Shown: one piece after another, positions 16,266-35,253 of the stretch | Position numbering within the stretch: the first letter of the stretch is position 1 | How the letters are laid out: every line of letters starts with the position of its first letter | Source: Bdellovibrionota bacterium | GTDB lineage: Bacteria; Bdellovibrionota; UBA2428 | DNA: 64,000 bases | NCBI GenBank assembly: GCA_035539375.1 | Contig: DATLIP010000068.1 | Location: 11,383-75,382, forward strand | Direction: 5' to 3' | Program-made: the position numbers and the translations under genes | The notes under the pieces: model-generated | The model's input: only the letters and a program-made list of their open reading frames with translations | The model's database searches: none | What the model was told of the DNA's origin: nothing

Positions 16266-16479
16266 GACGAGTCTCTATATCGGATCCCCTGCGGTCATTT
16301 TTATTAAGACTTTGTAAATTTCGGCGAATTTTTGCTCTTCACACAATCTTGACTGTGTTGCGTTTCCGTTTTTCGAGCCTTCTTTGTCAAAACTTAACCT
16401 GTCTGATCTGGCGATCTTCTAAACTAGAGAGAATAAAGGTCCGAAGAGGAGAAGACGCCTCTAGGAGGGGAATGTACGT

Positions 16480-19400
16480 ATGATGCCTTTTAAAAGCTAC
16501 CGTTTATTCCTTGCGAAGCCGGCCATGCTGCTTGCTTTTGCATCGGTCTTTTCACTAACCGCTTGTTTGAACTCGAAAGTTGGCGGCGGCGGCAATCGCC
16601 ACGAACAATCCACCAACGCCCGCGGCATCTCTCCCATCAAAGTCGAACTCAACTGGAACGAAGATTTTTCAGAAAAAACCTACGAAGTCTACGAAGCTAG
16701 CTCACAAGACCAAGTGCTCGCCACAACCCGTTTCGGTCAAGTCACGATCCCCGTTGTTCAAGACCAACTCTACGATTTCCGCGTCTTCCGTATCCTCAGC
16801 AACAGCGCCGAAAAATCCAAAGCTTTCGAATTCGACGGCGTGAAGTCTTGGGCTGGATTTGAAGACGTAGAACTCTCTTCGCACATCGAAGAATTCTTTC
16901 CCACTACGGTGACTTGGAACTACGAACCTTGGACCACAGGTCTCAAGGCGTCTTCGGCCATCAAACACACGACCATCGCTGAGTGCGCCTTTCTCAAGAA
17001 CGGCCTAAACTCGGACGACCCTTTCACGAATCCCCTCTCCAAAGTGCTCAAACGCAGCGCCTTTGATGAGAAGGTGATCGACAGCGGTTGCAAACTCGAA
17101 CCCAATGCCGATTACTTGGTGGCTTGCCGTATCAAGTACGCAGATGGCCACGTTTCGACCTCAACCCTCAAGGCCAATCTCGTGAGCCCCTCGGAATGTA
17201 TCAAGAGCGAAGAAGCCTTGCCGTATTTCTCGGTCGATGCCATTCAGCCTTCGCCCTATCTCGGATTTTCCATTATCAACGCCACCGGTGGGCTCTTTTC
17301 GTGGGCCCTGTTGGGTTACGATTACGACGCTCCCACGGGTCGCCTCACCGAAAAAACCATCGACTCCAACGCGCAGAACTACATCTCGGAGCTGATCAAC
17401 GTGGTCTACTCGACTCCGCTCAACCACTTTGGTCTGGGCCGCGTGCGCGCCACCTTCAAACCTTCGACTTCTTCGGTCACCCAGCAGGTGATCCCCAAAG
17501 ACTTCTATATAAAGACACTCGACGAAGCCACCTCGGTCATTTTCCCTCCGATCATCGACGCCGGTTCGCCGATGAGCATGGGTAATGCCACCTCTGTGGG
17601 CGACTACGATTGCGACGGCATCGATGACCTTGCGATCGGTATGAAAGATCTCCAATGGCGTGACGACTCCTCAGGCGCACCCGTTTACAAGCGCACGGGC
17701 GCTGTGGTGGTGTTCTACGGCGAAGCCAACCGCGGTCTTAAATATAAGAGCGCTGTGCCGAGCACGAACCCCGCCGAACCCGGCGTGGGCGCGCCTCGTC
17801 CTCCGCTCCTTATCTTGCCCCCCGACTTTGCCGCTTACGGTGGCGCGGGCATTCAGTTCGGTTACTCGCTCACTACGGGTAACTTCAACCGCGACGTGCA
17901 GTACGGCAATGGTTATTGGGCGAAGTGCGATGACCTTGTGATCGGTGCGCCCTACGTTTCGATCGAAACTCCGGGGTGGGCTGGCGGATCGGCCGGTGGT
18001 GCCGTGTTCATCACTTACGGAGGCCCTTCGGGTCTCAAGTCCAACTGGGCCGTCTCGCACCCCAACACTCCTTTTAACGGCTCTTGTGCGGGTGTGAACC
18101 CCGTCGTGCCCGACGGTCAGTCGGCACCGCCTTCTATGAACCTGGATGCCGGTGAACCCGCGTTTCCGCGTCCTATTCGCGGCGGCTCGGGCGTTTGTAC
18201 GGGCACTGTTCTCTATCCGCTCGGCATGCCGGTACTCATTGGCGCCTCGAATGCGGCGTCTCCTTTTTACTTTGGTGCAACCGAATCTACTGCCGGCTAC
18301 AAGGCTGAGCGCAACAACGTCTTCCTGATCTCTGGTCAGGGTACCATGCAACACGAGAGCCGCTCTTCGGGCTTTGGTATGGCGCTCGGTGCGGGCGACT
18401 TTGACGGCGACGGATACGACGATCTTATCGTCGGAGCGCCGCAAACGCAGCGTTTGACTCCCACCACTGGCACCGACAACAAGCCGAGCACTTCGGTCAA
18501 CGTTGGTGCCGCGCTTCTCTACTTCGGTGGCGCGAGCGGTGTTCGTCAGTACGTGGATACCTCTTGGAATGGTCCTACCGCCGTTGCCGGCGTGGGATCG
18601 CAAAACTCCATCTACCGCGCTACGGCGCTTTTCCCCAACTCGTCGACGACCACTCACATCTCGCCCATCAAGTTCGCTCCGGGCCGTAGCATGATCACAT
18701 CCTCGACCAAAGTGTCGATGAACTTCGGCACCTCCGTAGCGATCGGTCGCCTCAAGGGCACTCCTACGGGCAACACCGCGAACCAAGAAGTGTACACACG
18801 TCACCGTGGCGCGACGAACCTCAACTTCGGCGCTTCGGTATTCATCGGTGCTCCGGGCTACTCGTACACGGGTGCCTACGATGCCGGTGCCGTGGCGCAC
18901 GCATCGTGGACAGAGCACTTCTGGAGCACGACCTCAGCCTTTGAAACTTACACGCAGCCTTCGATGTATTTCGAAACGGCTGATGACTCTGGTCTCTTGC
19001 GCTTTGACATCGAAGCCGACGTGCTCGGCATCAAAGGTCTTGCGGGTTCGCTGCTCATCAACCCCGAAGTCGTCAACGCTAGCAACGTGGCTCAAACCGT
19101 CGCAAGCGGTGCTCGTTTCGGCGCCTCGCTTGCCGTAGGTTCGTTTAGACCTATTGCACGCACGGCGAGCCCCAACGCCACCATCGACTTTGGTCTGGAT
19201 CCCTATGGATCTTCGCCCATCAACCAAGTGCTCGCGATCGGAGCTCCGGGTTACAACTCGAGCACAGGTGTCGTATACCTCGTGAACGATGCAGGTCTTG
19301 ATTACGGCTCCAGCACGGGCTCCAAACAGAGCTCCGTGGGCGGATTTGACTTGAAGAGCGGGCCTCTGAACTCCGAAGTCACCACGGGTTATACCGGTAC

Positions 19401-22341
19401 GGTGGTGGGCAAAAACTTTGCTGCTCCCGATGGCTACACGGCGGGTCTCTGCGCGGATCCGTCGGATTGTGCGCCCATCAAGCGTGTGGATCCCTTCGGC
19501 TTCGCAGCCGGAGCAAGCTTCGGTTCTTCCCTCGGCATGGTTCGCAAACCGCTGAACTTCTCCACTTGCGGCAACACGCCGGGACAATGTACTGCAGATA
19601 ACCAAGGTAAGATGTTCTTCCGCAAAGGTGTGGAAGATCTCGACGTGCTCCTCGTGGGCGCTCCGGGCGCCCAAAAGGTGGCGCTCTATACTACAACTCA
19701 AGATACAGGGATGACGCTTGCCTCGTCGAACCTCGACAAAACCTCGGTCTACACTGGCAATATGACCTTCGGTGCCAACGTCACTGGGGGTTATTTCAAG
19801 AGCCGCGCCGATTTCTACTCGGTAGTGGCCTCTGCACCTACGCGCGCGCTCCCCGTTGCGGGTAGCGGTGACGTCTTTATCTACGAACCCACTGGTTCGT
19901 CGCTCCCTGCGACGCCCACTTCACTGGTACAAAACGTCAAGGGCACGGGGACGGTCTTTAACATCGGCTCCGAAGTGCAGCTCGGATTCAACGGATCGAC
20001 GCCCGTGGGCGACGTCAACTGCGACGGCTATTCGGACGTCATCCTCAAAATGGGCTATGGCGGATCGCCCTTTAATGCTCTCGGCTATCGCCTGGTGGTG
20101 CTCTATGGTTCGAGCGCTGGTCTTGTGACGACGGGTCTCAACGCCAACTACAACGCCAACCGTGATCCGATGAACCCCAAATCTCCGCAGTGGCTCGTGC
20201 CCGCGAAGATTGGTCTTGCGACGGAAGAGCCCGCTTCGACTTTCGTTTCGGGTGTGGCACGCAACGTCTACGGCGTGGGTGATATCAACGGCGACGGCTG
20301 TGATGATCTCGTTTACGGCAATAACAACGTCTACACCTTCTTTGGCTCGCCCTCGGGACTCGTGGCCGACCGCTCGCCTTCGCGCACGCTCAACTACGAT
20401 GTGACCCCGCCTTCGGGATCCTTCGACCGCACTCCGCAGTACACAGAAATGCCCAACGACGGCTTTACGGCCACCAACATGTTCGCGAATGGTTATTTCC
20501 AAGCGGTAGATGAAGCTGCCATCAACGGCGCCAATAGCACGAACTTGCGCTATTCGAACAACGCCCTTATCTTGACGACCTTACCGACAGCTAAGAATAG
20601 CATCACGAGCGGCGAAGGTGATGGTAGCTATTGGAACGGTGTCAGCGCGGCCTTGCCACACGTCTGCCACGGCGATTTCAACGGAGACGGCTTTATGGAC
20701 ATGGTCACCTCGACCACACAGGCCGCAAACTTCGGCGCCATTGGCTATGTGACTTCGAACGGAACCCAGTCGTCGATCATCAAATCGACCGACGCTACCT
20801 ATCGTATGAACGGTTATTACACCGTGTACTACGGTTCGGAATACGGATTGCAGTATCGCAAGCCTGCCGATGCGAACCAGCTGATGGGTTCTTGTAAGGA
20901 CGTGGGCACCTCGTCGGCTTCCAAGCTGCAGTGTAAGATCTCGCGTCTCTTCCACCCCTCGCAGTTTGTCAAAGAGGATTACGAAGCTACCGATGCGGAC
21001 AGCCGCTATTTCTTCCCCATTTTCCAGTGGCAAGAATCTTTCTTGCGCATCTCGGCCACCCAGACGGCTTCGGATAACGTTCCTTACGCTGGGGTCATTC
21101 TCGACAACTTCGGTACGGGCTGTCTCTCGACGGGCGACCTTGACGGCGACGGCGCGGACGATCTTGCGGTACCTCTGCCACAAAAGAAATCCCTTGCGGC
21201 CGGTTCGAGCTTTCTCATCTTCTGGGGCAAGCGCAGTTCGGGTCCGGGCGCGGATGAATCGCTGGGCCTCAACCAAAAACGTTCGAACTTCGTGCGTCTT
21301 GTGAAGGGCACCGTCGAGTCCGACGGCGTCTTCCAATACACCGCCGACTCGGTGAGCACGCTCAACGCTTCGGCCTTCACCGCGAGTTCGTCGCTGGGTC
21401 GTTCAGGCGCGGGCGTGGGTGACGTCAACGGCGATGGTCTCAACGACATCGTCCTCGGTGCCCCTGGAGACAACGCTTATGCGGTGATCTTCGGTGGTCG
21501 TCATCTCAAGCACCGCGACTTCACCGGTTCGCCGCAGACCTCGATCACAGATGAAGCTGCGACGAAGTTCTACCACGGCGGATCGGACAAAATGTTCTCC
21601 GGTGCGGGTGGTTACTGCGCGGGCACGACCGAAGCCTCCGAGTGTTACGAGCGTTGGGTGAAGGTGCTCACCGTGGATCACTATGGCACGTCGCAGGCTT
21701 GCGAAGTGAACCCAGATCCTTCGGACACCGACATGCCCTCTTGCGTGGCCTTGCACCACGGACAAAACGACTTTGAACAGCGCGCGGCTCTGCGCGTGGT
21801 TTATACGGGCTCGTCGAGCGACGGCTTTGGCAACTCGGTGCAGGCACTAGGTGACATGAACTCCGATGGGCACGCGGACTTTGCCCTCAACACCGCTGGA
21901 TACGATCACGTGAGCCAAAACGACATTGGCGGCGCGGTGATCTACTTCGGTGGTCAGATCGGGGTGCACACCAAGTCTTCGCCTTCGCAAGTGGCGCGCT
22001 GTATGGGCGATGACCGCGACACCTTTGCGGGCGTTCGCGATTGTATCCCTTACCGAGTGCTGCCAAAATTCGCTTCGGAGTCTTTTGACGGCATTCAGAA
22101 CGACATCTACTACAGCGGCCAAGCTTGGCAGCTGCGTTCGTCGATTCAGTTCCGAACCAAGAAGAACCGTCTCGAGGATCCGAACTTTGAGCAGTATCGC
22201 GGTACCAACTTGGGCTCTCGCGTACCTGGCTCGCTCGTCGATACCAAGAGTACGGACTTCCTGATGTGTGTGTCGGATAACTTTAAATCCAACCGGGATC
22301 CGGATCGTATCCGTACCGGTGCGTGTGGAGTGTACTACTAA
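16480..22341 (+). CDS. Giant lipoprotein (1953 aa) with multiple FG-GAP/integrin-alpha-like beta-propeller repeats
   Basis: Lipobox LTAC (Cys29). At least 8 Ca-binding DxDxDG-type FG-GAP motifs, including GDYDCDGIDDLAIG, GAGDFDGDGYDDLIVGAP, GDVNCDGYSDVIL, GDINGDGCDDLVYG, GDFNGDGFMDMV, GDLDGDGADDLAVP, GDVNGDGLNDIVLGAPG and GDMNSDGHADFAL. AGGAGG Shine-Dalgarno upstream. Confidence 0.85.
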   Translation: MMPFKSYRLFLAKPAMLLAFASVFSLTACLNSKVGGGGNRHEQSTNARGISPIKVELNWNEDFSEKTYEVYEASSQDQVLATTRFGQVTIPVVQDQLYDFRVFRILSNSAEKSKAFEFDGVKSWAGFEDVELSSHIEEFFPTTVTWNYEPWTTGLKASSAIKHTTIAECAFLKNGLNSDDPFTNPLSKVLKRSAFDEKVIDSGCKLEPNADYLVACRIKYADGHVSTSTLKANLVSPSECIKSEEALPYFSVDAIQPSPYLGFSIINATGGLFSWALLGYDYDAPTGRLTEKTIDSNAQNYISELINVVYSTPLNHFGLGRVRATFKPSTSSVTQQVIPKDFYIKTLDEATSVIFPPIIDAGSPMSMGNATSVGDYDCDGIDDLAIGMKDLQWRDDSSGAPVYKRTGAVVVFYGEANRGLKYKSAVPSTNPAEPGVGAPRPPLLILPPDFAAYGGAGIQFGYSLTTGNFNRDVQYGNGYWAKCDDLVIGAPYVSIETPGWAGGSAGGAVFITYGGPSGLKSNWAVSHPNTPFNGSCAGVNPVVPDGQSAPPSMNLDAGEPAFPRPIRGGSGVCTGTVLYPLGMPVLIGASNAASPFYFGATESTAGYKAERNNVFLISGQGTMQHESRSSGFGMALGAGDFDGDGYDDLIVGAPQTQRLTPTTGTDNKPSTSVNVGAALLYFGGASGVRQYVDTSWNGPTAVAGVGSQNSIYRATALFPNSSTTTHISPIKFAPGRSMITSSTKVSMNFGTSVAIGRLKGTPTGNTANQEVYTRHRGATNLNFGASVFIGAPGYSYTGAYDAGAVAHASWTEHFWSTTSAFETYTQPSMYFETADDSGLLRFDIEADVLGIKGLAGSLLINPEVVNASNVAQTVASGARFGASLAVGSFRPIARTASPNATIDFGLDPYGSSPINQVLAIGAPGYNSSTGVVYLVNDAGLDYGSSTGSKQSSVGGFDLKSGPLNSEVTTGYTGTVVGKNFAAPDGYTAGLCADPSDCAPIKRVDPFGFAAGASFGSSLGMVRKPLNFSTCGNTPGQCTADNQGKMFFRKGVEDLDVLLVGAPGAQKVALYTTTQDTGMTLASSNLDKTSVYTGNMTFGANVTGGYFKSRADFYSVVASAPTRALPVAGSGDVFIYEPTGSSLPATPTSLVQNVKGTGTVFNIGSEVQLGFNGSTPVGDVNCDGYSDVILKMGYGGSPFNALGYRLVVLYGSSAGLVTTGLNANYNANRDPMNPKSPQWLVPAKIGLATEEPASTFVSGVARNVYGVGDINGDGCDDLVYGNNNVYTFFGSPSGLVADRSPSRTLNYDVTPPSGSFDRTPQYTEMPNDGFTATNMFANGYFQAVDEAAINGANSTNLRYSNNALILTTLPTAKNSITSGEGDGSYWNGVSAALPHVCHGDFNGDGFMDMVTSTTQAANFGAIGYVTSNGTQSSIIKSTDATYRMNGYYTVYYGSEYGLQYRKPADANQLMGSCKDVGTSSASKLQCKISRLFHPSQFVKEDYEATDADSRYFFPIFQWQESFLRISATQTASDNVPYAGVILDNFGTGCLSTGDLDGDGADDLAVPLPQKKSLAAGSSFLIFWGKRSSGPGADESLGLNQKRSNFVRLVKGTVESDGVFQYTADSVSTLNASAFTASSSLGRSGAGVGDVNGDGLNDIVLGAPGDNAYAVIFGGRHLKHRDFTGSPQTSITDEAATKFYHGGSDKMFSGAGGYCAGTTEASECYERWVKVLTVDHYGTSQACEVNPDPSDTDMPSCVALHHGQNDFEQRAALRVVYTGSSSDGFGNSVQALGDMNSDGHADFALNTAGYDHVSQNDIGGAVIYFGGQIGVHTKSSPSQVARCMGDDRDTFAGVRDCIPYRVLPKFASESFDGIQNDIYYSGQAWQLRSSIQFRTKKNRLEDPNFEQYRGTNLGSRVPGSLVDTKSTDFLMCVSDNFKSNRDPDRIRTGACGVYY
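17598..21888 (+). repeat. Protein-level repeat region: dispersed FG-GAP calcium-binding motifs
   Basis: Motifs encoded around 17598, 18388, 20003, 20272, 20669, 21131, 21412 and 21847. The repeats are degenerate at the DNA level, so this is not a nucleotide tandem repeat. Confidence 0.7.
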
Positions 22342-22374
22342 GACCTAGCTTAAGACCGAAGATTAACGAGGGAC

Positions 22375-25300
22375 GTGATGCGGACAATCATAGGACACCA
22401 GAAAGGGATCCAGCTGCTCGGCTCGAGCCGCGGGGCCCTTCTTGGCCTAGTGTTGTCCTTGGGCGCTTGCAAAGGCGTAGACGTCTCCACCGTGCCTTCA
22501 CTGCTCGTCGATGCGGGCGATCGTGTGAACTTTCAGATGACTCCCGACCTGGCCAAACACGGTCTACGGGTGAACTCGGCCGAAGTTTATGTTTACGAAA
22601 ACGGCGACTACGTGGTCGATCCTTTGGCCCAAGTAGAGATTTCGGGCACGGGAGTGCAATACAAGTACAGCAAAGGCCGCGTTCCGAGCGGCTTGGACTA
22701 TGTCGTGGTGAAATACGCTGTGCCCAATGGTCGCGACGTCACCATGCGCGCTTTCATCCCCACTGATGCCACGAGTGTCAAACTCGGCGTGGCCAATACG
22801 AAAACCGTAGACTGGTTTTTGAGCCTCACCGACACGCAGCCCACGGTGGACGAGTGGACCCGAGTCAAAAATTATTTCGACGTGGCGCTATCGCGCGCTT
22901 GTTATGATCCTTCGCTACCATACTCGACCATCTACAAGCGCATGCGAGCGGTGGAGAACGGGATTTTCGATTCTGCCGAGCTCACGAGCCTCGTGCAGGA
23001 ATTTGCCGTAAGCTCTGCCAACCTTCGCATGAAGTTTGGTGAAAACCGAAAGCCCTATCTTTCGCGAGCCATTCCTATCCCCTCGGAAACACAGCTAAAC
23101 CTGGTGAACGTGCGCGAATCGAATTCGCGTTACCTTTACTCTGAGACCATCGATCTCGACGGCGACGAAGTGCTCGTGCGCTGGAAAATGACCGGCGGTG
23201 AGACGCTGCCAACGAGCTGGATCAAATACAAAGAATCGGCCTTCTTGCCTAAGGCGTTCTGGCCTATCGAATATCTCAAAGTCGATTCGACCTTCGACGA
23301 CTCTACGGAAACCGATTTCCGCGCTTTCGGCCTAAATCTCAGCGTTTGCGACGGCGGCCGATTGCAGTCCTACGATTACCACGTCACGATCGACGACGTG
23401 AACCGTGCCCCTTACCTGACCTCCACACGTCCTTCAAACGTGAGCATTTCGGAGTTTGTGGTAACAGATCCGGTGAACACAACCAAAGTGTACACGGTCA
23501 AGGCCAAAGACGCCGATGGCGATGCCATTTCGATGTCCCTCGACGTGTCTTCGTCGCCGAACGTCTTTCTCTCTGCCACTCCGACGCTCACCGTGCAGGG
23601 CATGCTGATCGGCCGTTGGGTAGGGGGAGACGTCTCCACGGATGTGGTCACGGCCCAAGAGAAAAAATGGCCGCTCACCGCGTCTACCATTCGCATGCCC
23701 GAAGAGGTCACCTTCAAGTCTAACGGCAAGGTGATGCTCAAGGATTATCCCGCTCCCGGTCAGGACACCGAGCTCGAATACGAAGGCTTCACGCCCAAAC
23801 AAGGCGATTTGCTTGGGGTCAAACTCAAGTCCTTGCCCATCGCCTCGCCTGTCAACATCGGCTCCATCGATCTGCTTTGCACGATCAAACTCGGTGGCGG
23901 CGCCCGCTCTTTTGACTTTGTCTGCTCGCACACCCACGAGAGCCTGAGCACTGCCGACTTCGAGTGGCGCCGTTCGTACCGTTGTCCTACCTTTACGGCC
24001 ACCTCGGCCACCGAAAACGAAAACTGCTTTTACCGCCGTGCCAACGCGCCCGATGGAGTGAACCCCGATAAAGACCAGCTTCTGTACCTGATTTACCGTC
24101 CGCAGAACAACGATTCCAAACGCGGTGATATCACGGCCTATGTGAACATCTCGGACTATCCTCGTGCCGGTGCCACTTCGACAAGCATCGAATACAAAGT
24201 CACCGACGTGAACAGCACACCGCTAGTGACGGGAGTGCGAGACATCTCTCAGCATTATCCCGCCGATCCGGTAGAAATCCTGAACTACAGCGAGACGAAC
24301 GCGAATAGCAACTACAAGTTTGACCAACCTTGGGTTCGTCTCAACCAGCGCATTTTTACCGAATGGGACGTGGGTAGCCAAAAGTATACCGATGTGCCCT
24401 CGAACAAACGCACATGGGTGGAGAAAATGCTTTGGCGTAAAGTGAGTGCCGGTCCTCAGTCCGACCTCTTCGCTCAAGCGGATTATTTCTATTTCGTTAG
24501 CGAAAAGACGGATGCCCATTTTTCGAAGATCATTTTTGGTAATAACCAAGCCTTCCCCGACAATCATAAGATGCCCACCACGCCCAAATTTGACGGCGAT
24601 ACCGAACACCGCAAAGCCCGTCTCTTGCGTTACGACGGCACGAACACTTACGTGTACATCCCGCACTTTTATGGTCCTGCTCACGCCAGCATACAGCCCA
24701 GCGATACGGCTGATGTGAAAGACCTCAAGCAGGACGCCGTTTGCCGCATCTCAAACTGGTTCTACCGCAACCCCGCGAGTTACCAGGGCCTTGTGGACAA
24801 GGCGATCGACATCAACGACGCCGGCAAGTTCAAAGCCGATCCCATCCACAGCGACGTCAAAGTGGTTTGTGCGCAATCCTACGGCAGCACTTGCTCGCGT
24901 ACTGGTGCTTGCGCTCAGACGGATCTCGACGCCATTGCGGGCCTGAGTCAGGCGGGTCTTGATACCAATGGAACGCAGTTCGACATGGCCATCGAGCGTT
25001 TGCTCTTTGGTCGTGTGCCCTCGGGTGAAAGTGGCGACACCGGTGGCGCCATCGACGGCACGCCGAACTTTTATTCGGGCCGCACCAAGGTTCTTGCCAC
25101 CGCGGCCGACGCATCGACCAACTTTCTCAGTCTCAACAGTGAGACTTATAACTCTGTGATCTACGGACTGATGTACGGTTACTTCACCTTGCCTTCGAAG
25201 TGGGATACCGGTCAGAAACCCGACCACATCGATGGATCGGCCAAGCGTCTTCTCGTGCAGAAGATTCGTGAAAACTGGGGTCCCTCGTCGACCGGTATCT

Positions 25301-28300: not shown

Positions 28301-31300
28301 GGATCAGCGGTTTTGAGGGCTATGGCTCACGCGTGACGCCGCCGCTGGGAGGCATGGACGGTTTCATCAAGGTCGCCAAATACCGCTCGCAGCTCGAAGG
28401 CTTGCGCTTCAAGCGTGAGTACAAGTCCGATCACCTGCCGTACACCCAACGCTTCAACCTCAAAGCGGGAGCGCAGTGGCCGATGGAATTCTATACCGAC
28501 AACGCTTCTGAGTACTATCCGGATTACACCGGCAACGGCAATACTTACACGCGCTCTACGCTCGGTCGTGGAGGTAAGGGCGCTGCCACTTTGACCTATT
28601 CCGAGGCTTATCCTATCGCAGCAGGCCAACCGAAGATCACCGTTTACGAACGCAACGACACGCCTTGCTTAACGCTAGAAGGTGGCGTGGCGGCTACAGT
28701 GCGCGGCACGACCTGCGATCCCGACGTCAACAATCGCTTTGCTGCGGCGACCCCGAATAACATGTCTGCAGGTTCGACGGTGCTCTCGGCCGCCAACGAT
28801 GCGAGCGGTGTGATGACCTACGAAATTGAAGTCAAAGGCTTCGACGACTCTGGCTCCACTCCCGGCACCGGGACCACCGGTTCAAATGGCAAAGGCATCG
28901 CCGAGGGCGTGCCCTATGGTCTGCGCCTGGCGGCTCGCGATCCGAACTTCACGGGTGGCTCGGTGCTCAACGCACGACTCTTGTCGTCTCCAGCTGTCGA
29001 CCGTCGCTTCCCTTTCGATGGCGGTACCTCAATCACCAAAGTGCTCGAGGGTGGGGCGAGCGCCGTGCAAAACCTTCCGCACTACTGGGCAATATGGTCC
29101 ATTACGGGTGTGCTCCAAGACCCGCACGTGCGCAAGACGACAGTGCTGGACGCGGGGCTAGAGCTACCCAAGATTCAGGTAGAAGTTTACGACAACGGTC
29201 AGTATCCCGGTGCGGCGCGCGAGCGCATGAACTTCTCGGTGCACGGCTGGGACTACAACAGCAAGCCCAATTACCTCGGCCCGGTGGCATTCTGGATCAC
29301 CGGCCAGGACATGGACATGTTCATCAACGGCTTCGTGCCCAAGTTTAAATACGATCTTGAAAACCAGGGCATCGAGAACAATATCGTGATGGCCGCCTAC
29401 GACATGGACCGCGGTGACACGCTCCAATTCACCGTTACAGGACAGAACGCTTACGGTTTTGCTCCGGGAGACTTTTCGGCTACCACGATTTCTCCGAGCC
29501 ATCCCAATTATGATCTGTGGTGTAAGAACCCGGCGAAGATCTCTAAGAATATCGAAACCGCAGGCGGCCAAGAGCTCGCTTGTGTGAAGATCTCCTTCAA
29601 AATGAAATTCAACACCGTGGCCGATGTGAACTTCGGTGTGACGGTAGAAGACGTGCCCTGGTGGGCTCAGCCTGGTGTGACCCAGGTTTATAACCCCAGT
29701 GCCGGTGCTTATGTGACGGCCAACTATGCCGACCTCTACGAAGCGCGCTTTGGCCCCGCGGATCTTGGCATTGCGCCGCAGTCGGTGAGCGGCAGCGTTT
29801 CGATCTCGGGCAACATGGCTCCCAAAGTGCTCACCTACCAAGGCGTGGAATCTTATCCCTTTGGTATCGCGTATAACGACGAGGGTTATCGTCAGGATTT
29901 TGTGATCACGGGATCGGACCTTTCGGGCGTGAGTTGTCAGCTCACCAAGTCGCCCAAACTGAGTCCTTATGCTCTCGAAGAGCTCGCCTCGCTCGGATAT
30001 AGCCTGCAGCCCGAAGAGACGATGACAATCTCCACCATCAACGTCGCAAACGACACCAAGATTTGTCGGCTCAGCTGGCGTGCGATCGCCCGTCCTGCGG
30101 GTTACAACCCTTGGGTACGCTCGAACGCCGCCGAAATGAACGTCGAAGTGAAGATCTACAGCGGCGCTACGGTGATCCACACCGCAGCCTATAAAATTTC
30201 TGAAAAAGGTCCCGGAGCAAACACTCAGGACTCCGTGCGTTCGCCTCAGTACTTCTCGTACTCGAGCCGGCCGACAGTTGCGGTGGGTACTCTTGAGATC
30301 GGCGCATCGGTGGATAGCGTGGCGCTCACTAAGAACGCGAGCCTCGAGCTTGTGGGTGACGAGGCCAAAGAGTGGACTTTCAGTGCGCCCTTCCGCTCGC
30401 ACACCTCGAGCTTCACTTATTATCCGATCGACGCCATTTGGTACTTCGATGGCAAACCGGTGGCAATCGGCGGCGAAACCTACAAGCGTTTCTTCAACCC
30501 CAAAGAATCGGGTCAGCACACGATCGCTTTGGCGATTCACGACGGTTCGATGAACCGCTACACCTACCACGAGCAAAAGATTCTCGTGCGCAACAACGTG
30601 CCCTTCCTCGATCCGTCTGAGGGCGTTTCGGTGGTGGATGCGGGCTTCCGTCCGAACATCGACACCTTCTTGTTCTCGTCGCTCTGGTCGATGCCCACTG
30701 AAAAGTCCTTTGTCGTGAACGGTATCAAGAACAACGCGACCAACTTGCTCACTTACCGCAACCAGTCCAGCTCGCTGAAAACGCAATTCACCTACGTGGT
30801 GGCGCTCCAGCACGGCGGTCTCTACTACGACTCGTCGCGTGCCCTGTGGCTCTATTCGAACGTGGCGACGGCGGGTCCGAGCCTTAACGAAAGCGCTTCG
30901 ACGGCGGGCTATCACCCGAACTACGGCGGCGCTAAGAACCACCAGCAGTACTATTTGCTCGAAAATGGCCAGATGACTGCCACCAACCAAACCACTTTCG
31001 GTTCGAGCCTGCGTTCGAGCGTGGTCTTCTCGAACACTCGTGAACGCGCCAAAGGTCTGATGCGCTCTGAGAACATCGACTCGAGCGCCTACATCGTGTG
31101 GACCAACGACTTGCGCAGCGGTCGCAACGCGAACCGCCTGTGGGTGCACGATTCCACAAACCAGCGCACGTTGGGCTACATCAACGTGGGCCCCGATTCG
31201 ATGAGTGGACCTTCCCGCATTCAGGATTTCCGAGTGGCAACCGTGGGCTCGCAGAAGACCATCGCTGTTGCCACGGTCGACGGTATTTATATGGTGCCTT

Positions 31301-31779
31301 ATGGCGGCACGGGTGGGGGCGACGGTGTGTGGTGGAAACGCGACGAGAACTTTGACCTCGCCGCGCTCAGCTCGGACATCCCCTCGGATGTCGACCGCAA
31401 CGTCACGCTGAGTGGCAACGCGCGCATCGTGGCCTTCACCGGCACAAAACTCATCCTTTGGAACGGCACGAGCGTTGAAGAGTACAATGTGAGCTATTCT
31501 TTGGGCTCGTACACCGTGACGCTCGCACGCACGGTTAGCGGCGTCTTGCCACTGCGAAGCTCAAACCCCAACGACGACTACTCGTCTTATAATAGTGTTA
31601 CCAACATGGTGATCCTCATCGAAGGCGGCAGCGGCGGCGTAGAGATGGTCGACATGGCCAAGGTCACGCCGGCCACTCACCGGGCCGATGTGACCTCGGG
31701 CGCCCTGCAATCGGTCGTCTGTGGTCTGGAATGCTACGTTTTTGATGCTCAGCGTAACGCCGTCATTCCCTTGAAATAA
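22375..31779 (+). CDS. Giant lipoprotein (3134 aa) with divergent cadherin/Ig-like modules; otherwise unassignable
   Basis: Lipobox LGAC (Cys31). Starts 33 nt after the previous gene behind a GAGGGA Shine-Dalgarno (GTG 22375 or ATG 22378). Cadherin-like signatures include IDLDGDEVLVRW, TIDDVNRAPYLTS...VKAKDADGDAISMSLDV, VTDVNSTPLV and AYDMDRGDTLQFTVTG. No recognisable catalytic motif. Confidence 0.75.
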   Translation: MMRTIIGHQKGIQLLGSSRGALLGLVLSLGACKGVDVSTVPSLLVDAGDRVNFQMTPDLAKHGLRVNSAEVYVYENGDYVVDPLAQVEISGTGVQYKYSKGRVPSGLDYVVVKYAVPNGRDVTMRAFIPTDATSVKLGVANTKTVDWFLSLTDTQPTVDEWTRVKNYFDVALSRACYDPSLPYSTIYKRMRAVENGIFDSAELTSLVQEFAVSSANLRMKFGENRKPYLSRAIPIPSETQLNLVNVRESNSRYLYSETIDLDGDEVLVRWKMTGGETLPTSWIKYKESAFLPKAFWPIEYLKVDSTFDDSTETDFRAFGLNLSVCDGGRLQSYDYHVTIDDVNRAPYLTSTRPSNVSISEFVVTDPVNTTKVYTVKAKDADGDAISMSLDVSSSPNVFLSATPTLTVQGMLIGRWVGGDVSTDVVTAQEKKWPLTASTIRMPEEVTFKSNGKVMLKDYPAPGQDTELEYEGFTPKQGDLLGVKLKSLPIASPVNIGSIDLLCTIKLGGGARSFDFVCSHTHESLSTADFEWRRSYRCPTFTATSATENENCFYRRANAPDGVNPDKDQLLYLIYRPQNNDSKRGDITAYVNISDYPRAGATSTSIEYKVTDVNSTPLVTGVRDISQHYPADPVEILNYSETNANSNYKFDQPWVRLNQRIFTEWDVGSQKYTDVPSNKRTWVEKMLWRKVSAGPQSDLFAQADYFYFVSEKTDAHFSKIIFGNNQAFPDNHKMPTTPKFDGDTEHRKARLLRYDGTNTYVYIPHFYGPAHASIQPSDTADVKDLKQDAVCRISNWFYRNPASYQGLVDKAIDINDAGKFKADPIHSDVKVVCAQSYGSTCSRTGACAQTDLDAIAGLSQAGLDTNGTQFDMAIERLLFGRVPSGESGDTGGAIDGTPNFYSGRTKVLATAADASTNFLSLNSETYNSVIYGLMYGYFTLPSKWDTGQKPDHIDGSAKRLLVQKIRENWGPSSTGIFPAASNTGFGEVLIDQRARTITFGATAEEFRIGKNRIGGGANTYLQAGQFVYKQYQYIHPNLACRYLVRDRGNRVILTCTTKTGSDTAPKDYLTELSGAAVIDVPITYPQSTKGIAFDSLPAGVSFVQESPGRFKLNGSDQHLMGVARMPLVLRGNFYDPDVNGRSGASQDTITMNATALNGALIDAAVVYRKKDGDPITVTYNNACLNNGKRGDNSVSFTPKDVYNLSFMEIGASDMATGDFIVVVYPDSRCSTRDMMPTGIDNTPPWIELKITDGTPNVDTRLKFSFDFFDKPYPPYIYGHWENPANCAGSAYSFSEYKYLGQVVARYEYGTWDESLVAPEGCESYSYDYSGTTNMYVNGVVRSVSYVSKSRGIYCYDYTGSSGSWMLPVYRDSSGRAVDVRHLGNPANPAVNYIWNESPAFLGQFSRPRADETTNPNYEVGLNPKACRFIVIDDNYDDVKLGFLKKTSKNDFLIPVDQSDDNGEFNPAATDYTEVRRKHGINVRADYGLGPSDGSTATDLDFSPILGVDGNFVPANAPKPLKIANLFSKWYKLAGLNAAGSSLATGLSTFASSGLTLRADLGDFKVINFRQPRFQGIDTRAYLMFSKENLKDHEYVCEQDLMTPAQDAAEPMGGVIYQALRAGSLHTLKLKTNFVADNFYNADCVNDSGEVQLTRPGCVYQFTAACAVDPTLDQEQARDPSCYAPIASATKTIANAKCFSVDPKVEAKWSQDGVLSGDAFTEFAESPYDLYFEVKGVGDFVEGTSGDARDWRCAARSWYKDGYLDFRCSVKGDDQNKYFAVSELKSQEKDTFNTWLSSSGLNVKNTPTGYTYESPWEKHYEITWAPSLANPGGADPVAAPAIWSGMLVAEDAPVPIFGNKRARVTTALHMKAIDVLSTDTTMAMQTTWLNVNVGEGDSGKALIPYWVQSNDAKVAPFVTSAPDSESSPPTTTFIKNLSAWFQRPHANTDKAGFQNWMLNAAESSKVDVTPNPENSFVGISGFEGYGSRVTPPLGGMDGFIKVAKYRSQLEGLRFKREYKSDHLPYTQRFNLKAGAQWPMEFYTDNASEYYPDYTGNGNTYTRSTLGRGGKGAATLTYSEAYPIAAGQPKITVYERNDTPCLTLEGGVAATVRGTTCDPDVNNRFAAATPNNMSAGSTVLSAANDASGVMTYEIEVKGFDDSGSTPGTGTTGSNGKGIAEGVPYGLRLAARDPNFTGGSVLNARLLSSPAVDRRFPFDGGTSITKVLEGGASAVQNLPHYWAIWSITGVLQDPHVRKTTVLDAGLELPKIQVEVYDNGQYPGAARERMNFSVHGWDYNSKPNYLGPVAFWITGQDMDMFINGFVPKFKYDLENQGIENNIVMAAYDMDRGDTLQFTVTGQNAYGFAPGDFSATTISPSHPNYDLWCKNPAKISKNIETAGGQELACVKISFKMKFNTVADVNFGVTVEDVPWWAQPGVTQVYNPSAGAYVTANYADLYEARFGPADLGIAPQSVSGSVSISGNMAPKVLTYQGVESYPFGIAYNDEGYRQDFVITGSDLSGVSCQLTKSPKLSPYALEELASLGYSLQPEETMTISTINVANDTKICRLSWRAIARPAGYNPWVRSNAAEMNVEVKIYSGATVIHTAAYKISEKGPGANTQDSVRSPQYFSYSSRPTVAVGTLEIGASVDSVALTKNASLELVGDEAKEWTFSAPFRSHTSSFTYYPIDAIWYFDGKPVAIGGETYKRFFNPKESGQHTIALAIHDGSMNRYTYHEQKILVRNNVPFLDPSEGVSVVDAGFRPNIDTFLFSSLWSMPTEKSFVVNGIKNNATNLLTYRNQSSSLKTQFTYVVALQHGGLYYDSSRALWLYSNVATAGPSLNESASTAGYHPNYGGAKNHQQYYLLENGQMTATNQTTFGSSLRSSVVFSNTRERAKGLMRSENIDSSAYIVWTNDLRSGRNANRLWVHDSTNQRTLGYINVGPDSMSGPSRIQDFRVATVGSQKTIAVATVDGIYMVPYGGTGGGDGVWWKRDENFDLAALSSDIPSDVDRNVTLSGNARIVAFTGTKLILWNGTSVEEYNVSYSLGSYTVTLARTVSGVLPLRSSNPNDDYSSYNSVTNMVILIEGGSGGVEMVDMAKVTPATHRADVTSGALQSVVCGLECYVFDAQRNAVIPLK

Positions 31780-31855
31780 GGCGCTTTGGCCCTATCTCAG
31801 CGAAATCTAAGGCTCGGCCCTCAAGTCGCACCCCCAGACTTCCGATAAAAGGCTT

Positions 31856-33667
31856 ATGAAAGCGCATTTGCGTACCTTATTCGTCTTTGCCGTGGCCGCG
31901 ACGTGCTCGTCTGCGTTTGCGCAAGCGCTGATGCCCAAGCTCACTCCGCGCTATGCCGAGCGCGTGCTCAGCGAATACCTTGAAGAGATCGCCGTCGAAT
32001 CGCTCGGGAACATTCTCGACAAAGATTCTTTCGAAGTTCTCGTCGACATCAAAGTTGAAGATGCCGAAGAATTAGAGAAGATCAAAGACCTTGCTTCGCA
32101 GGGACCCATGCCTGGCCTCACGGCACCGGCGTCGCCTTTTACCCGCAAAGAACTTCTCGGTTTTCTCGAGTCGCTTCAGCAAAAGAAGAACATCCTTATT
32201 GTGATCGATCCGGATAGCATCCCGGGTGGAGATCGCAAAGCCAAGCTCATCGAGCTCGTGCAAGAAACCCTCACCGGCAAGCTCAAGCTCAATCTCGCTT
32301 CGCAGCGCGATGTTATCGTGATCCGCGAAGCGCAAATCGTGCCCAAGCTTGACGAAAATGGCCGCTCGATCGCTTCTGAAAATGGAGATCGTCGTCACGT
32401 GAGCGTGAACGAGACCAACTCGGGCACGGACTTTTCGTTCTTTTGGAATTTCCTCTTGAGCGCGATGGTGCTCGGCGCGAGCTACTACGGTTACCGCTAC
32501 TGGAAAAACCGTCGCACCGTTTCCTTCATGAGCGACGAAAAGACGTCGGTCGAAGAGTTCAAAGGCGTGGGGCCAGCCCTCAGCCCTTATTACGGTTTGG
32601 GTGAAGAGAACGAAAAAGACGAATCGGCCGAGAAGGGCCGCGAAGAACTCGTGAGTCTCTTCGAGAAACTGGCCGTGGATTACCCTGGCCTCAGCTCGCA
32701 GGCCCTGCAGAAGTACGTACAAATTTACGGAGAAGACCTGCGCAGCGTGGTGCATTTTGTGGAACTCGTGGGCTTTGACCGTGCCCTGAAACTCTTCTCG
32801 GATGTTCCTCAAAAAACTTGGCGCGTGATCGGTCAGTTCATGGCGATCAATCCGCTTGGTCCGGACGATTTGATCAACTACAAAGAAGTGCTCACTCTCT
32901 ACCGTATCCTGATGGCCTTCGTGGTAGAGAACAAAGGCTTTGACTCCGACATGGGCGTTTTTGCCAAGCTCGAAGGTCATTCGCCGGTGGATCTCTACTT
33001 GGCCCTGCAGGAAGAGAGCGATGTCTTTATCGCGAAGTTCCTCTCGGGGGTTTCTGAGTCGACCTCTTCAGACATCGTTAGCCAATTCGATTCCAGCCGT
33101 AAGATCAAGATCCTTGCCACCATGGCCAAGGTTCGCAACGTAACAAACGACGAACTCGTGACGATCGAATCGAAATTGTCCAAAAAGCTTGGAGGCGATT
33201 CGGGAGCGAAGCTTGTCGAAGTCACCAACGACGCACGCATCTTCCGCTCGCTGGCGCAAATGTCGCCAGTGCAAGAAGAGCAGCTTTTTGCGGACATGCT
33301 CAACTCAGACCCTGAGCTCGAAATTCGAGCTCAGCGCCACCGCTTTTATCCTGTGCACCTCGCCACCATTGATGCCAACGTTCTAAAAGAAGAACTTCGC
33401 ACCTTCCCCGTGGACGACATCGCGCGCATGCTGCGCGGCTTGCACCCCACAATCGAACGACGCATCCTCTCGCTCGCCCCCGAGCGCAAGGCGGCCGTGG
33501 TTCAGGACGCGCTAGACGCGCTTCGCACTCAGCCCATCGTGCCCGAATACGCCGAAGTACGCCGGGCCTTTATGGACATGCTTTACGACAAATACGTCGG
33601 CTCAAACCAGGACTTCGCGGGCAATTTGTTCTCGAACGGAATGGCAAGGGGCCCGCGTGCGGCCTAA
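31856..33667 (+). CDS. Bitopic membrane protein: periplasmic ring-building-motif-like N-terminal part, one TM, and a cytoplasmic FliG/MgtE_N-like domain (FliF/FliG-like chimera)
   Basis: Signal peptide (FAVAATCSSAFAQA), TM about aa 193-215 (FSFFWNFLLSAMVLGASYYGYRYW). The cytoplasmic C-terminus LKEELRTFPVDDIARMLRGLHPTIERRILSLAPERKAAVVQDALDALRTQPIVPEYAEVRRAF lines up with the FliG_C pattern L+EV....LA.AL+G......+IL.NMS.RAA..L.EDLE..GPV.L.EVE.AQ. An upstream FliG_M/MgtE_N-like helical repeat is also present (SPVDLYLALQEESDVFIAKFLSGVS...SSDIVSQFDSSRKIKILATMAKVRNVTNDELVTIESKL). The assignment is by eye only. Confidence 0.6.
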   Translation: MKAHLRTLFVFAVAATCSSAFAQALMPKLTPRYAERVLSEYLEEIAVESLGNILDKDSFEVLVDIKVEDAEELEKIKDLASQGPMPGLTAPASPFTRKELLGFLESLQQKKNILIVIDPDSIPGGDRKAKLIELVQETLTGKLKLNLASQRDVIVIREAQIVPKLDENGRSIASENGDRRHVSVNETNSGTDFSFFWNFLLSAMVLGASYYGYRYWKNRRTVSFMSDEKTSVEEFKGVGPALSPYYGLGEENEKDESAEKGREELVSLFEKLAVDYPGLSSQALQKYVQIYGEDLRSVVHFVELVGFDRALKLFSDVPQKTWRVIGQFMAINPLGPDDLINYKEVLTLYRILMAFVVENKGFDSDMGVFAKLEGHSPVDLYLALQEESDVFIAKFLSGVSESTSSDIVSQFDSSRKIKILATMAKVRNVTNDELVTIESKLSKKLGGDSGAKLVEVTNDARIFRSLAQMSPVQEEQLFADMLNSDPELEIRAQRHRFYPVHLATIDANVLKEELRTFPVDDIARMLRGLHPTIERRILSLAPERKAAVVQDALDALRTQPIVPEYAEVRRAFMDMLYDKYVGSNQDFAGNLFSNGMARGPRAA

Positions 33668-33685
33668 TGATGGAGGATATGGCTT

Positions 33686-34486
33686 ATGAACATCGCTAGT
33701 ATTATCGGTTTTATAATGGCCGGTAGCGTGGTTTGGTTCGGGGTTATCGGCCCTGCCGCCAACCGCAACATGTTTATGGACTCGCACGCGCTGATCCTTG
33801 TGATCGGTGGCACCATGGCAGCCGCGTTCATCGCGTTTCCTCTGAAAAAGATCATGGGCATGTTCAAAGTGCTCGTGAAAGAGGTGATGTTCAAACGCAG
33901 CAGCCCCAACGTGGCGCTCGTAAAAGAGATCATCGACGCCTCGAACGTTGCCAAGCTCGACCCTGCGGCTCTGGGTGGCCGTACGGCTACACACCCTTTC
34001 CTTAAGGAAGGCTACCAGATGATCGCCGACGGCGTGCTCTCGGACAGCGAACTCCATGAAGTGCTCAAAAAGCGCTCGATGTTCTTTAAAAAAGACTACG
34101 GCGGCGACGCCAAAATGTTCACCGCACTCGCTAAGTTTCCTCCGGCCTTTGGTCTTCTCGGCGCTTCGTCGGGGATGATCGCCATGATGGGCAGCCTGGG
34201 CAACGGCGCCGGTCAGCAGTATATCGGCCAAGCCATGGCGATCGCGCTCGTCGCGACCTTCTGGGGTATCGGCATCGCGAACTTGGTGCTCCTGCCTCTG
34301 GCGGACTACTACCACAAGCTCGCAGACGACGATTTTTACACGCGCCTGCTCGTGATGGAAGGTATCATGATGCTCAAGCGTCGCGAATCTCCCATCGTGG
34401 TGGTCGAAAAGATGAACTCCTTCTTGCACGTGTCGGAACGGGTCAACGCCCCGGCCGCTGCGAGCTCCGGTAGAAGGGCGGCCTAA
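33686..34486 (+). CDS. motA: Flagellar-type stator protein MotA/PomA (proton or sodium channel)
   Basis: 266 aa, 4 TM with a long TM2-TM3 cytoplasmic loop. FPPAFGLLGASSGMIAMM (equivalent to MotA PAFGMIGT, Pro173) and ALVATFWGIGIANLVLLPLADYY (Pro222 equivalent). GGAGGA Shine-Dalgarno 6 nt upstream. Confidence 0.85.
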   Translation: MNIASIIGFIMAGSVVWFGVIGPAANRNMFMDSHALILVIGGTMAAAFIAFPLKKIMGMFKVLVKEVMFKRSSPNVALVKEIIDASNVAKLDPAALGGRTATHPFLKEGYQMIADGVLSDSELHEVLKKRSMFFKKDYGGDAKMFTALAKFPPAFGLLGASSGMIAMMGSLGNGAGQQYIGQAMAIALVATFWGIGIANLVLLPLADYYHKLADDDFYTRLLVMEGIMMLKRRESPIVVVEKMNSFLHVSERVNAPAAASSGRRAA

Positions 34487-35253
34487 TGTTTTCGCCGTCG
34501 CGTCGACCTCCGCCGCCCCCTTCATCGGGATACTCGCGCGGCATCGCCACTCGCAAACTGCTCGAAGCTGCTTCGCTGCAGGACGACATGATGGAGATGG
34601 AAGAGACGACGCCGCACGTGGACGAAGGTTGGCTGGTGTCCTACGCGGACATGATGACGCTGCTTTTTGGTCTTTTCGTTTTGCTCTACTCGATGTCCAC
34701 CATGGATAGCGAAAAGTTCGAGACCCTCAAAAAGGTCTCGGCCGAGTCTTTTGGTGGCCAGTATCAAAACCCCGTAGAAGATCTCAATAAGAACATCGCC
34801 AAGCAATTCAAAGAACTCTCCAAGAGCGGTGCGATCACGCTCAAAGAAACTCCCACGGGGATTGAAATCAACATTGGCGGCGAGCTGCTCTTTGCCTCGG
34901 CCCAAGCAGATTTCACCGAAGGTGGCCTCACGATCATCAACCAATTTGCCGACGCTGTGAAAAAGGCCCCTGGCAAATTCGTGATTCGCGTGGAAGGTCA
35001 TACCGACGACGCGCCCATCGCCACCGAAAAGTACCCCTCTAACTGGGAACTCTCCTCGGCTCGCGCCACCCACGTGGTGCGTCAGCTGATCTCGCGTGGT
35101 TTTGACCCCACCAAAATGGAAGCGATCGGCTACGCTGAGACGCGTCCCATGGCTCCGAACCGCTCTCCTGCGGGCGAGCCCATCGCGGTGAACCAGGCCA
35201 AAAACCGTCGTGTTTTCTTGAAGGTCGTCACCGACCCGAACCTTGTAAAATAA
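34486..35253 (+). CDS. motB: Flagellar-type stator protein MotB (OmpA-like peptidoglycan-binding C-terminal domain) with a Pro-rich N-terminal extension
   Basis: EGWLVSYADMMTLLFGLFVLLYSMS carries the essential channel Asp in the YAD context. The OmpA-like region is VEGHTDDAPI...SNWELSSARATHVVRQL...GYAETRP...NRRVFLKV. The start overlaps the motA stop (TAATG). Confidence 0.85.
   Translation: MFSPSRRPPPPPSSGYSRGIATRKLLEAASLQDDMMEMEETTPHVDEGWLVSYADMMTLLFGLFVLLYSMSTMDSEKFETLKKVSAESFGGQYQNPVEDLNKNIAKQFKELSKSGAITLKETPTGIEINIGGELLFASAQADFTEGGLTIINQFADAVKKAPGKFVIRVEGHTDDAPIATEKYPSNWELSSARATHVVRQLISRGFDPTKMEAIGYAETRPMAPNRSPAGEPIAVNQAKNRRVFLKVVTDPNLVK

Follow-up and report, generated by a model that had tools for sequence, protein, structure and literature searches.

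Two giant lipoprotein genes stand directly upstream of a FliG-like gene and a flagellar-type stator pair in a 64,000-nucleotide (nt) stretch of contig DATLIP010000068.1 (positions 11,383 to 75,382; hereafter the window), which raises the question of whether the giants and an ion-driven motor belong to one machine. A sequence-only reading of this DNA had proposed that the five genes form a single co-transcribed block in which a stator powers adhesins. The explanation that we favor, at about even confidence, is that the window contains a copy of a system, conserved in Bdellovibrio-like bacteria and spread over several operons, that spans the envelope, uses flagellum-derived rotor and stator parts in a non-flagellar setting, is driven by proton-motive force and acts on giant lipoproteins predicted to lie at the surface. 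The conserved set consists of the FliG-like/MotAB module, a VWA protein with a metal-ion-dependent adhesion site (MIDAS), a TPR lipoprotein, one or two secreted barrel-like proteins, a protein with two transmembrane (TM) segments, and one to three giants, which usually include a G1-type FG-GAP protein with a G2-type protein present or absent.

The five genes all lie on the plus strand. G1 (16480-22341) encodes a giant lipoprotein of 1953 amino acids (aa) with integrin-like FG-GAP repeats, and G2 (22378-31779) a second giant lipoprotein of 3133 aa, in which no domain was recognised. They are followed by G3 (31856-33667), which encodes a membrane-anchored FliG-like protein of 603 aa, G4 (33686-34486), a flagellar-type MotA/PomA stator A subunit of 266 aa, and G5 (34486-35253), a MotB stator B subunit of 255 aa with a plug and an OmpA-like peptidoglycan-binding domain. 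The open reading frame (ORF) table reproduces the strand, coordinates and gap sizes given by the sequence-only reading, with spacings from G1 to G5 of 33, 76 and 18 nt and finally a 1-nt overlap. The G2 ORF as listed (22375-31779; 3134 aa) opens at GTG 22375, and since it opens GTG-ATG and GAGGGA lies 6 nt before the ATG, its start is likely ATG 22378, which makes the G1-G2 gap 36 nt. Upstream of G1, an AT-rich intergenic region (16266-16479; 43% GC compared with 56% for the window) separates a divergent Ser/Thr kinase gene from G1 and is the presumed promoter region of G1-G2.

Word-indexed protein searches returned two relatives for G3, two for a 16-sequence FliG-like profile, and two matches for G2, one of which was the window's own protein. 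The wider FliG-like family was found through an exhaustive profile search of representatives, with 394 matches at E <= 1e-3. Some 40 of the matched FliG-like proteins are full-length and membrane-anchored (570-655 aa), and most of the others are shorter and match in the FliG M/C region only. We compared 12 independent genomic contexts, with orthology assigned by blastp and phmmer, and found that a giant adjoins the FliG-like gene in 10 of the 12 contigs, at FliG-like identities from 80% down to about 18%. In six of them the giant is of the G1 FG-GAP type, and the contigs differ in the order and orientation of their genes. In the window, L001 and L015 (FliG-like identity 100%, 80% and 30%, respectively), G1 and G2 lead into the FliG-like, MotA and MotB genes (F, A and B in what follows), then come the VWA gene and a gene for about 400 aa on the opposite strand, and then genes for the TPR protein and for proteins of about 205 aa and about 530-600 aa on the first strand. 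L003 (35%) has a G2-type gene, a 119-aa ORF and then F, A and B, while in L014 (34%) both G1 and G2 are on the opposite strand, divergent from F, A and B with 350 bp between. L011 (33%) contains a 3094-aa giant, the 204-aa and TPR genes on the opposite strand, and a forward run of a 406-aa gene, VWA, F, A, B and a 520-aa gene. In L007, where no FliG-like gene was seen, G1 and G2 run into a convergent VWA gene with no triad between. L004 (34%) has a 154-aa ORF followed by F, A and B, the VWA and 440-aa genes on the opposite strand, and then TPR, 213-aa and 561-aa genes; its contig ends about 740 bp upstream of F and is uninformative for giants. The same gene families recur in other orders in L009, L010 and L017 (about 18-23%), each with giants: one of 2111 aa in L009, one of at least 1505 aa with He_PIG/Big_9/Cadherin domains in L010, and two FG-GAP/fn3 proteins of 1562 and at least 1693 aa in L017. 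In the distant L018, F is followed on one strand and with tiny gaps by FG-GAP proteins of 1562 and 1765 aa and a 2106-aa protein. Since the giants stay with FliG-like/MotAB while order and strand change, their coupling goes beyond synteny inertia. The genetic coupling that the sequence-only reading had seen in this one genome thus survives rearrangement in relatives that are 18-35% identical, and we consider it likely that the giants and FliG-like/MotAB are functionally coupled.

The sequence-only reading treated the five-gene block as the whole set, which proved incomplete: five more genes (35271-41109) belong to the same conserved set. The first encodes a secreted VWA protein of 472 aa (35271-36689, minus strand; Pfam VWA, E = 1.4e-10) with a signal peptide, a MIDAS of the form DASGS(M) and a C-terminal domain of about 280 aa, and its orthologues lie in the cluster in L001, L004, L007, L009, L011, L014, L015 and L017. 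It pairs with a gene for a secreted 417-aa protein (36686-37939, minus strand) that has a signal peptide, no Pfam match and no PDB match even with the family profile. The family consensus of this protein has Phe as its last residue, and it is possibly an outer-membrane beta-barrel; orthologues stand beside the VWA gene in L001, L004, L011 and L014. On the plus strand, a TPR lipoprotein of 280 aa (38003-38845; Pfam TPR_2, E = 3e-8) has an LGAC lipobox that is kept in the window, L011 and L017 and is absent from the called L014 start, and orthologues occur in L001, L004, L009, L011, L014, L015 and L017. The next gene (38842-39456, plus strand) encodes a small outer-membrane beta-barrel-like protein of 204 aa with a signal peptide, a C-terminal WLFF and a weak match to Pfam OMP_b-brl that spans the whole profile (E = 0.0086, positions 2-175 of 175), and it has orthologues in L001, L004, L009, L010, L011, L014, L015 and L017. 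The last is a 531-aa ORF (39514-41109, plus strand; likely start ATG-ATG at about 39559) for an inner-membrane protein with two TM segments (23-49 and 219-254), a periplasmic loop and a cytoplasmic C-terminal domain; it has orthologues in L001, L004, L011, L014 and L015 and gave no match in Pfam, in NCBIfam or, with its family profile, in PDB. Among the accessory proteins, Pfam and NCBIfam returned only the VWA, TPR and weak OMP_b-brl matches. We rejected a further ORF (37936-38511, minus strand) as a gene, because it overlaps the TPR gene antisense and its apparent homologues reflect antisense conservation.

The sequence-only reading held that the five genes appear to be co-transcribed and that 16266-16479 is the only extended promoter-like region. 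Taken strictly, this describes a 19-kb operon driven from that region alone, with adhesins and motor on one mRNA. The shared strand and short gaps fit such an operon, as does the identical order in L001 and L015. The predicted lack of terminators in the 33-nt and 76-nt gaps was borne out: neither contains a terminator-like site (across the block 25 such sites were found compared with 22.1 expected, which is background), and neither gap folds into a stable hairpin, its predicted RNA folding being no better than that of shuffled sequence (z = +1.8 and -0.2, respectively). However, the 76-nt gap, which is not AT-rich, contains a FliA (sigma-28)/attack-phase-type motif (31821-31847, plus strand; TCAAG-N16-CCGATA) whose CCGATAA box ends 7 nt before the G3 start. 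In B. bacteriovorus, 92 of 140 attack-phase promoters are reported to share the consensus TTAAG-N16-CCGATA, which was ascribed to FliA; this sigma factor drives most attack-phase genes of that species, the flagellar ones being a part (PMC3627812). Upstream of the FliG-like gene we found TAAAG-N16-CCGATA in L001 and L015, TCAAG-N16-CCGATA in L011, a perfect match (TTAAG-N16-CCGATA) in L004, and copies with two mismatches in L014 (TTCAG-N16-CCGAAA) and L003 (TAAAG-N16-CCGAAA). Across these seven loci the motif ends 7-11 nt before the FliG-like ATG, and the surrounding DNA is unalignable between loci. Allowing at most one mismatch, 0.4 copies are expected by chance per 64 kb on both strands, and the window has three, all just upstream of genes. 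The second (39467-39493, plus strand; TTAAG-N16-CCGATT) precedes the 531-aa gene, where L001 has a perfect copy and L011 one with a single mismatch, and the third (14810-14784, minus strand; TTAAG-N16-CCGACA) ends 8 nt before a peptidase S11 gene. L010 has a perfect copy before its giant gene.

Judged from these motifs, the motor triad very probably has its own promoter of the FliA/attack-phase type, and the closeness of the motif to the G3 ATG suggests a leaderless or near-leaderless mRNA. On the other hand, no FliA-type motif with two or fewer mismatches lies on the relevant strand upstream of G1, in the G1-G2 gap or in the divergent region between the 417-aa and TPR genes, where the TPR gene has a good -10 box only. 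Since G1 has no such motif upstream, G1-G2 would be regulated differently from the motor triad. The region 16266-16479 contains no match to the sigma-70 consensus, and a sigma-70 scan across the block stayed at background and was uninformative. Rfam gave no match for the region upstream of G1 or for the window as a whole, which speaks against a cyclic di-GMP riboswitch. The AT-richness of 16266-16479 stands, and its status as the only promoter-like region does not, given the FliA-type motif at 31821-31847. Likewise, co-transcription agrees with the lack of terminators and the order kept in L001 and L015, but the internal FliA-type promoter and the arrangements in L014 (giants divergent), L011 (giant split off by opposite-strand genes) and L007 (no triad after the giants) argue against an obligatory single unit, and we regard the single operon as decidedly unlikely. 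With no terminator in the gap, transcription may run on from G2 in this genome, but such read-through cannot be the organising principle. In L014 and L011 the giants are transcription units of their own.

Elsewhere around these promoters we noted several further features. The Ser/Thr protein kinase gene (14868-16265, minus strand) is divergent from G1 and shares with it the AT-rich 214-bp intergenic region; on its side, at 16278-16304 (minus strand) and 12 nt from the kinase start, lies a CCGATA -10 box whose -35 element (ATAAA, two mismatches) is weak. This kinase may regulate the cluster and is not conserved in the other loci. The gene that follows the third FliA-type motif (13856-14776, minus strand) encodes a secreted, D-Ala-D-Ala carboxypeptidase-like peptidase S11, which may be a predation gene; specialised DD-peptidases of B. 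bacteriovorus are described as acting on the prey wall (PMC3276566). A looser FliA-like motif, TTAAG-N15-CCGAAA (57545-57570, plus strand), lies about 130 nt upstream of an ORF (57702-58511) with no Pfam match. Among the relatives, the locus of the closest one, L001, with 80% identity in the FliG-like, MotA and VWA proteins, has 43% GC compared with 56-57% in the window (L001 and L002 against the window), a large difference in GC for such near kin. The small ORFs upstream of the FliG-like gene in L003 (9560-9919, 119 aa, after the giant) and L004 (198-662, 154 aa), both of a Bacteriovorax-like clade, have no Pfam match and are absent from the window. In L015, an IS200-type (Y1_Tnp) transposase gene (13688-14314, minus strand) sits between the MotB and VWA genes, so the cluster tolerates insertion at an operon boundary. 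In L018, the 2106-aa gene downstream of the two FG-GAP giants (21832 onward) has a weak Baseplate_J match.

What kind of motor protein is G3? In flagella, FliG is soluble and cytoplasmic, has about 330 aa, docks on the C-terminus of FliF and binds FliM via its EHPQR motif. G3 starts with a signal peptide, which is followed by a periplasmic alpha/beta domain of about 140 aa (about residues 24-160), a TM helix (about 193-219), a low-complexity linker and a cytoplasmic FliG-like region (about 257-581) with N, M and C domains. This region matches Pfam FliG_M and FliG_C, the 16-sequence family profile matches the MC region of Thermotoga maritima FliG at E = 4e-36, and full-length FliG structures rank first in a Foldseek search with the whole G3 model. 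The torque helix retains the equivalents of R281 and D288 in 'PERKAAVVQDALD'. We ruled out G3 as an ordinary flagellar FliG, since at 603 aa, with the export signal, periplasmic part and TM helix just described, it is not a soluble protein, the EHPQR motif is missing, and it reaches 26.7 bits against the NCBIfam fliG equivalog, whose cut-off is 226.7. An AlphaFold2 model of the periplasmic domain, built from 16 sequences, has a predicted local distance difference test score of 79 and a predicted template-modelling score of 0.68. Foldseek placed the RBM3/S-ring domain of FliF closest to this model (E = 2-7e-3, probability 0.99-1.0, TM-score 0.45-0.53) and also returned PrgK (E = 0.015). The model is suggestive of an RBM3-type domain, short of proof, and in layout G3 would resemble the C-terminal half of FliF fused to FliG. 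As a separate observation, the last two residues are -AA in 11 of 16 FliG-like proteins (PRAA, EAA or QAA, among others; window 33659-33667), and four more end in Ala.

The two stator subunits align end to end with their flagellar counterparts. G4 covers positions 1-249 of 254 of the NCBIfam PomA model and 1-253 of 259 of the MotA model, below the equivalog cut-offs, and aligns with solved MotA/PomA structures over residues 1-250, which makes it an A subunit with four TM helices and the full cytoplasmic torque-generating region. G5 matches Pfam MotB_plug (E = 6.5e-17) and OmpA (E = 7.6e-15). We compared the stator residues across seven MotAB pairs of the FliG-like-associated family and found that the channel Asp, which in G5 lies in WLVSYADMMTLL (YADMMTLL), is invariant in all seven, and that the equivalent of MotA R90 (E. 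coli numbering) is Lys or Arg in every one. Conservation of these residues indicates selection on the module to work as an ion-driven stator against a FliG-type surface. All seven MotA proteins also end in -AA (RAA, KAA or AAA; window 34478-34486); since the C-termini of MotA and the FliG-like protein are both cytoplasmic, the shared ending could be an ssrA-like ClpXP degron or a docking motif.

With a flagellar-type stator and a FliA-type promoter, the triad could be an extra stator/rotor element of an ordinary flagellum, in which case its adjacency to the giants would be meaningless. B. bacteriovorus indeed has several motAB pairs that serve one flagellum (PMC3526173, PMC12827227). However, the triad stays linked to the giant, VWA, TPR and barrel genes despite extensive rearrangement and at identities as low as about 18%; its FliG-like protein, anchored in the membrane and carrying a periplasmic domain, is unlike any flagellar FliG; and FliA in B. 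bacteriovorus drives most attack-phase genes. Moreover, there are no flagellar genes elsewhere in the window or in the loci of the relatives, and no FliM or FliN gene nearby. We therefore regard a flagellar accessory role as highly improbable.

The giants themselves are predicted lipoproteins. G1 matches Pfam FG-GAP (E = 5.2e-34) and FG-GAP_3 (E = 3e-17) and contains eight integrin-type DxD/NxDGxxD Ca-loop motifs and 27 Cys, which agrees with its description as integrin-like in the sequence-only reading. Collinear G1 homologues adjoin FliG-like genes in L014, L017 and L018 (E = 1e-19 for the L017 and 5e-25 for the L018 FG-GAP proteins), and the L007 homologue stands beside G2 and the VWA gene only. 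Using a signal peptide ending in [LVI][ASTVI][GAS]C as the criterion, we found the lipoboxes LTAC in G1 (+2 Leu) and LGAC in G2 (+2 Lys), and the lipobox is kept in 6 of 6 G1-type and 5 of 5 G2-type relatives, none of which has Asp at +2. The lipobox without Asp at +2 that had been reported for both giants is thus present and conserved. The lipoprotein part of the accompanying localisation claim stands, whereas surface placement does not follow from the E. coli Lol +2 rule by itself. G2 has full-length homologues in L001, L007 and L003, and in L014 and L015 only the N-terminal 400-640 aa are conserved. The family alignment shows many invariant Cys, which fits an extracytoplasmic protein. In a public gene call for the same organism, G2 has 3095 aa and its signal peptide is trimmed off; since the lipobox is conserved, the longer form is favored. 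No Pfam domain was found in G2, either as a whole protein or in 600-aa pieces, and single-sequence and profile searches against PDB gave only marginal matches, to AMA1 (E = 0.048) and to protocadherin-8 (E = 0.014, G2 residues 295-364). With this profile match and two DVNxxP motifs as its basis, the cadherin-like label proposed earlier for G2 is barely supported and no more than a weak lead.

Since the giants carry conserved lipoboxes, they would need a way to reach the surface, which raises an alternative in which the stator and FliG-like unit form an export or assembly engine that would energise their translocation, display or folding, with the barrels as conduit and no later movement. The two secreted barrel-like proteins and the TPR lipoprotein are conserved partners, in keeping with such an engine. 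There are also precedents: GldLM powers type IX secretion system (T9SS) secretion as well as SprB movement, and SiiAB, which is MotAB-like, supports the function of the giant adhesin SiiE. However, Pfam, NCBIfam and PADLOC revealed no known secretion component (type I secretion system (T1SS), T9SS, Slam-like or usher), and the FliG-type torque interface suggests continuous mechanical output. We consider an export engine unlikely, and it is compatible with our favored reading of a motor that acts on the giants.

The same parts could also work in the reverse direction. The giants would then sense prey or surface contact, the load would be read via the stator and FliG-like unit, and the signal would pass through the 2-TM protein to kinases and phosphatases. 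The conserved 2-TM protein has a sensor-like topology, a Ser/Thr kinase gene is divergent from G1, and HAMP-SpoIIE or SpoIIE genes occur in the L010 and L009 clusters. These signalling genes are not conserved across loci, however, and the 2-TM protein has no recognisable signalling domain; the conserved MotB Asp, plug and peptidoglycan anchor point to active ion-driven work. A mechanosensor is in our view very unlikely. Independently of this alternative, the two most distant loci have SpoIIE (PP2C-type) phosphatase genes within the cluster or next to it (L009 16287-18059; L010 11839-13746; one with HAMP), which hint at phospho-regulation there.

If the favored reading is correct and the window encodes an ion-driven envelope system acting on giants, it would operate as follows. 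Through its RBM3-like periplasmic domain, the FliG-like protein would assemble into a small rotor of the MS-ring kind, or at the minimum form an element that the stator drives, and peptidoglycan-anchored MotA5B2 units would turn or push this element using ion-motive force. The periplasmic and outer-membrane proteins would transmit the work to giant, fast-evolving, disulfide-rich surface lipoproteins, and the output would be adhesins moved or tensioned for gliding, prey attachment or prey entry in the hunting phase. A more specific version is possible and more tentative: a second, non-flagellar rotary machine, in which a FliF/FliG-like ring turned by MotAB would drive the giants via the VWA, TPR and outer-membrane module, as the missing apparatus of Bdellovibrio-like predators for gliding or prey attachment/entry, within the attack-phase FliA regulon.

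Several observations weigh against this reading. The equivalent of MotA E98 is not conserved (Gly, Asn, Thr or Lys), and the FliM-binding EHPQR/EHPQ motif is degenerate, being EESDVF in G3 and variable in the family; since neither is kept, the rotor-stator interface would differ from the flagellar one. OsmC/Ohr and MamM folds score like RBM3 against the periplasmic model of G3, and with E at about 1e-3 that resemblance is borderline. No MotAB genes lie within 10 kb in L018, the 9.4-kb contig of P0012 is the only one that shows no giant, and the giants of L011, L009 and L010 have no detectable similarity to G1 or G2. The surface exposure of G1 and G2 is a prediction only, and the FliA-type promoter would also fit a flagellar accessory role. 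One relative is a metagenome-assembled genome named 'uncultured Bacteriovorax sp.' (Bdellovibrionota), and we infer the Bdellovibrio-like taxon of the system from this one named genome and the promoter type. A powered adhesin, as the sequence-only reading had put it, is the best hypothesis, with rotation, ring formation and contact between motor and giants as its putative elements.

How does such a system compare with known machines? The kinship with the flagellar rotor-stator is one of true homology in MotA, MotB and the FliG M and C domains, with the channel Asp, the plug, the peptidoglycan-binding domain and the R281/D288 equivalents shared. Its likeness to the flagellar core and to engineered FliF-FliG fusions (PDB 8z4d) lies in the putatively RBM3-like periplasmic domain and the resulting layout of a FliF C-terminal half plus FliG. 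In contrast to the flagellum, G3 is a single polypeptide with a signal peptide and one RBM-like domain, the neighbourhood lacks genes for FliM/FliN, export apparatus, rod, hook or filament, the EHPQR motif and MotA E98 equivalent are not conserved, and the partners are VWA, TPR, barrel and giant lipoproteins. The Bacteroidota GldLM-T9SS-SprB system similarly couples a 5:2-type ion-driven motor through the periplasm to a very large mobile adhesin, but GldL and GldM are unrelated in sequence, the cargo there has T9SS C-terminal domains rather than lipoboxes, and there are no T9SS genes here. In Salmonella pathogenicity island 4, the MotAB-like proton channel SiiAB is linked to, and needed by, the giant non-fimbrial adhesin SiiE; that system differs in its T1SS (SiiCDF), a C-terminal secretion signal, BIg repeats, the lack of a FliG-like partner and an adhesin that is not a lipoprotein. 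The gliding machinery Agl-Glt/CglB of Myxococcus is laid out in a like way, from an ion-driven motor in the inner membrane through TPR and periplasmic parts to outer-membrane barrels, with a VWA/MIDAS protein (PMC13104615). Here, however, the motor is flagellar-type MotAB with a FliG-like protein and not the TolQR-like AglRQS, and the giant FG-GAP lipoproteins have no counterpart there. Glt and Cgl families are absent among the Pfam and NCBIfam matches of the accessory proteins, and whether those libraries hold Glt/Cgl models was not checked. Zorya ZorAB is likewise a MotAB-like stator outside the flagellum. We rejected Zorya, as G4 has 266 aa with no ZorA tail or match, there is no ZorC or ZorD, and PADLOC gave only a generic ZorB match for MotB and none for the other seven proteins. 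By analogy, then, the architecture is like that of Agl-Glt/CglB or GldLM/SprB and recalls SiiAB/SiiE, and specific components are shared with none of these. In the literature we found no description of a membrane-anchored FliG-like protein with MotAB, and a paper on MotAB evolution mentions none. The system thus appears to be undescribed as well as larger than five genes; it would be a variant of the envelope machines with ion-driven motors, and possibly a new class if rotation and adhesin drive were shown.

To our knowledge, FliG and flagellar-type MotAB are known to work together only in the flagellum. A non-flagellar pairing in which FliG is fused to a FliF-like domain would, if true, mean that the flagellar torque module has been redeployed, and G3 would offer structural studies a simple FliF-FliG fusion of natural origin. 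Integrin-like FG-GAP giants and a VWA/MIDAS protein tied to a motor would parallel the CglB and SprB systems with different parts. A 2026 review describes the machinery behind Bdellovibrio gliding as one that 'remains unidentified' and sees a major open challenge in the discovery of its motor, adhesins and force transmission (PMC13104615). The cluster described here, with its 10 genes and putative attack-phase promoter, offers a concrete candidate set for that machinery.

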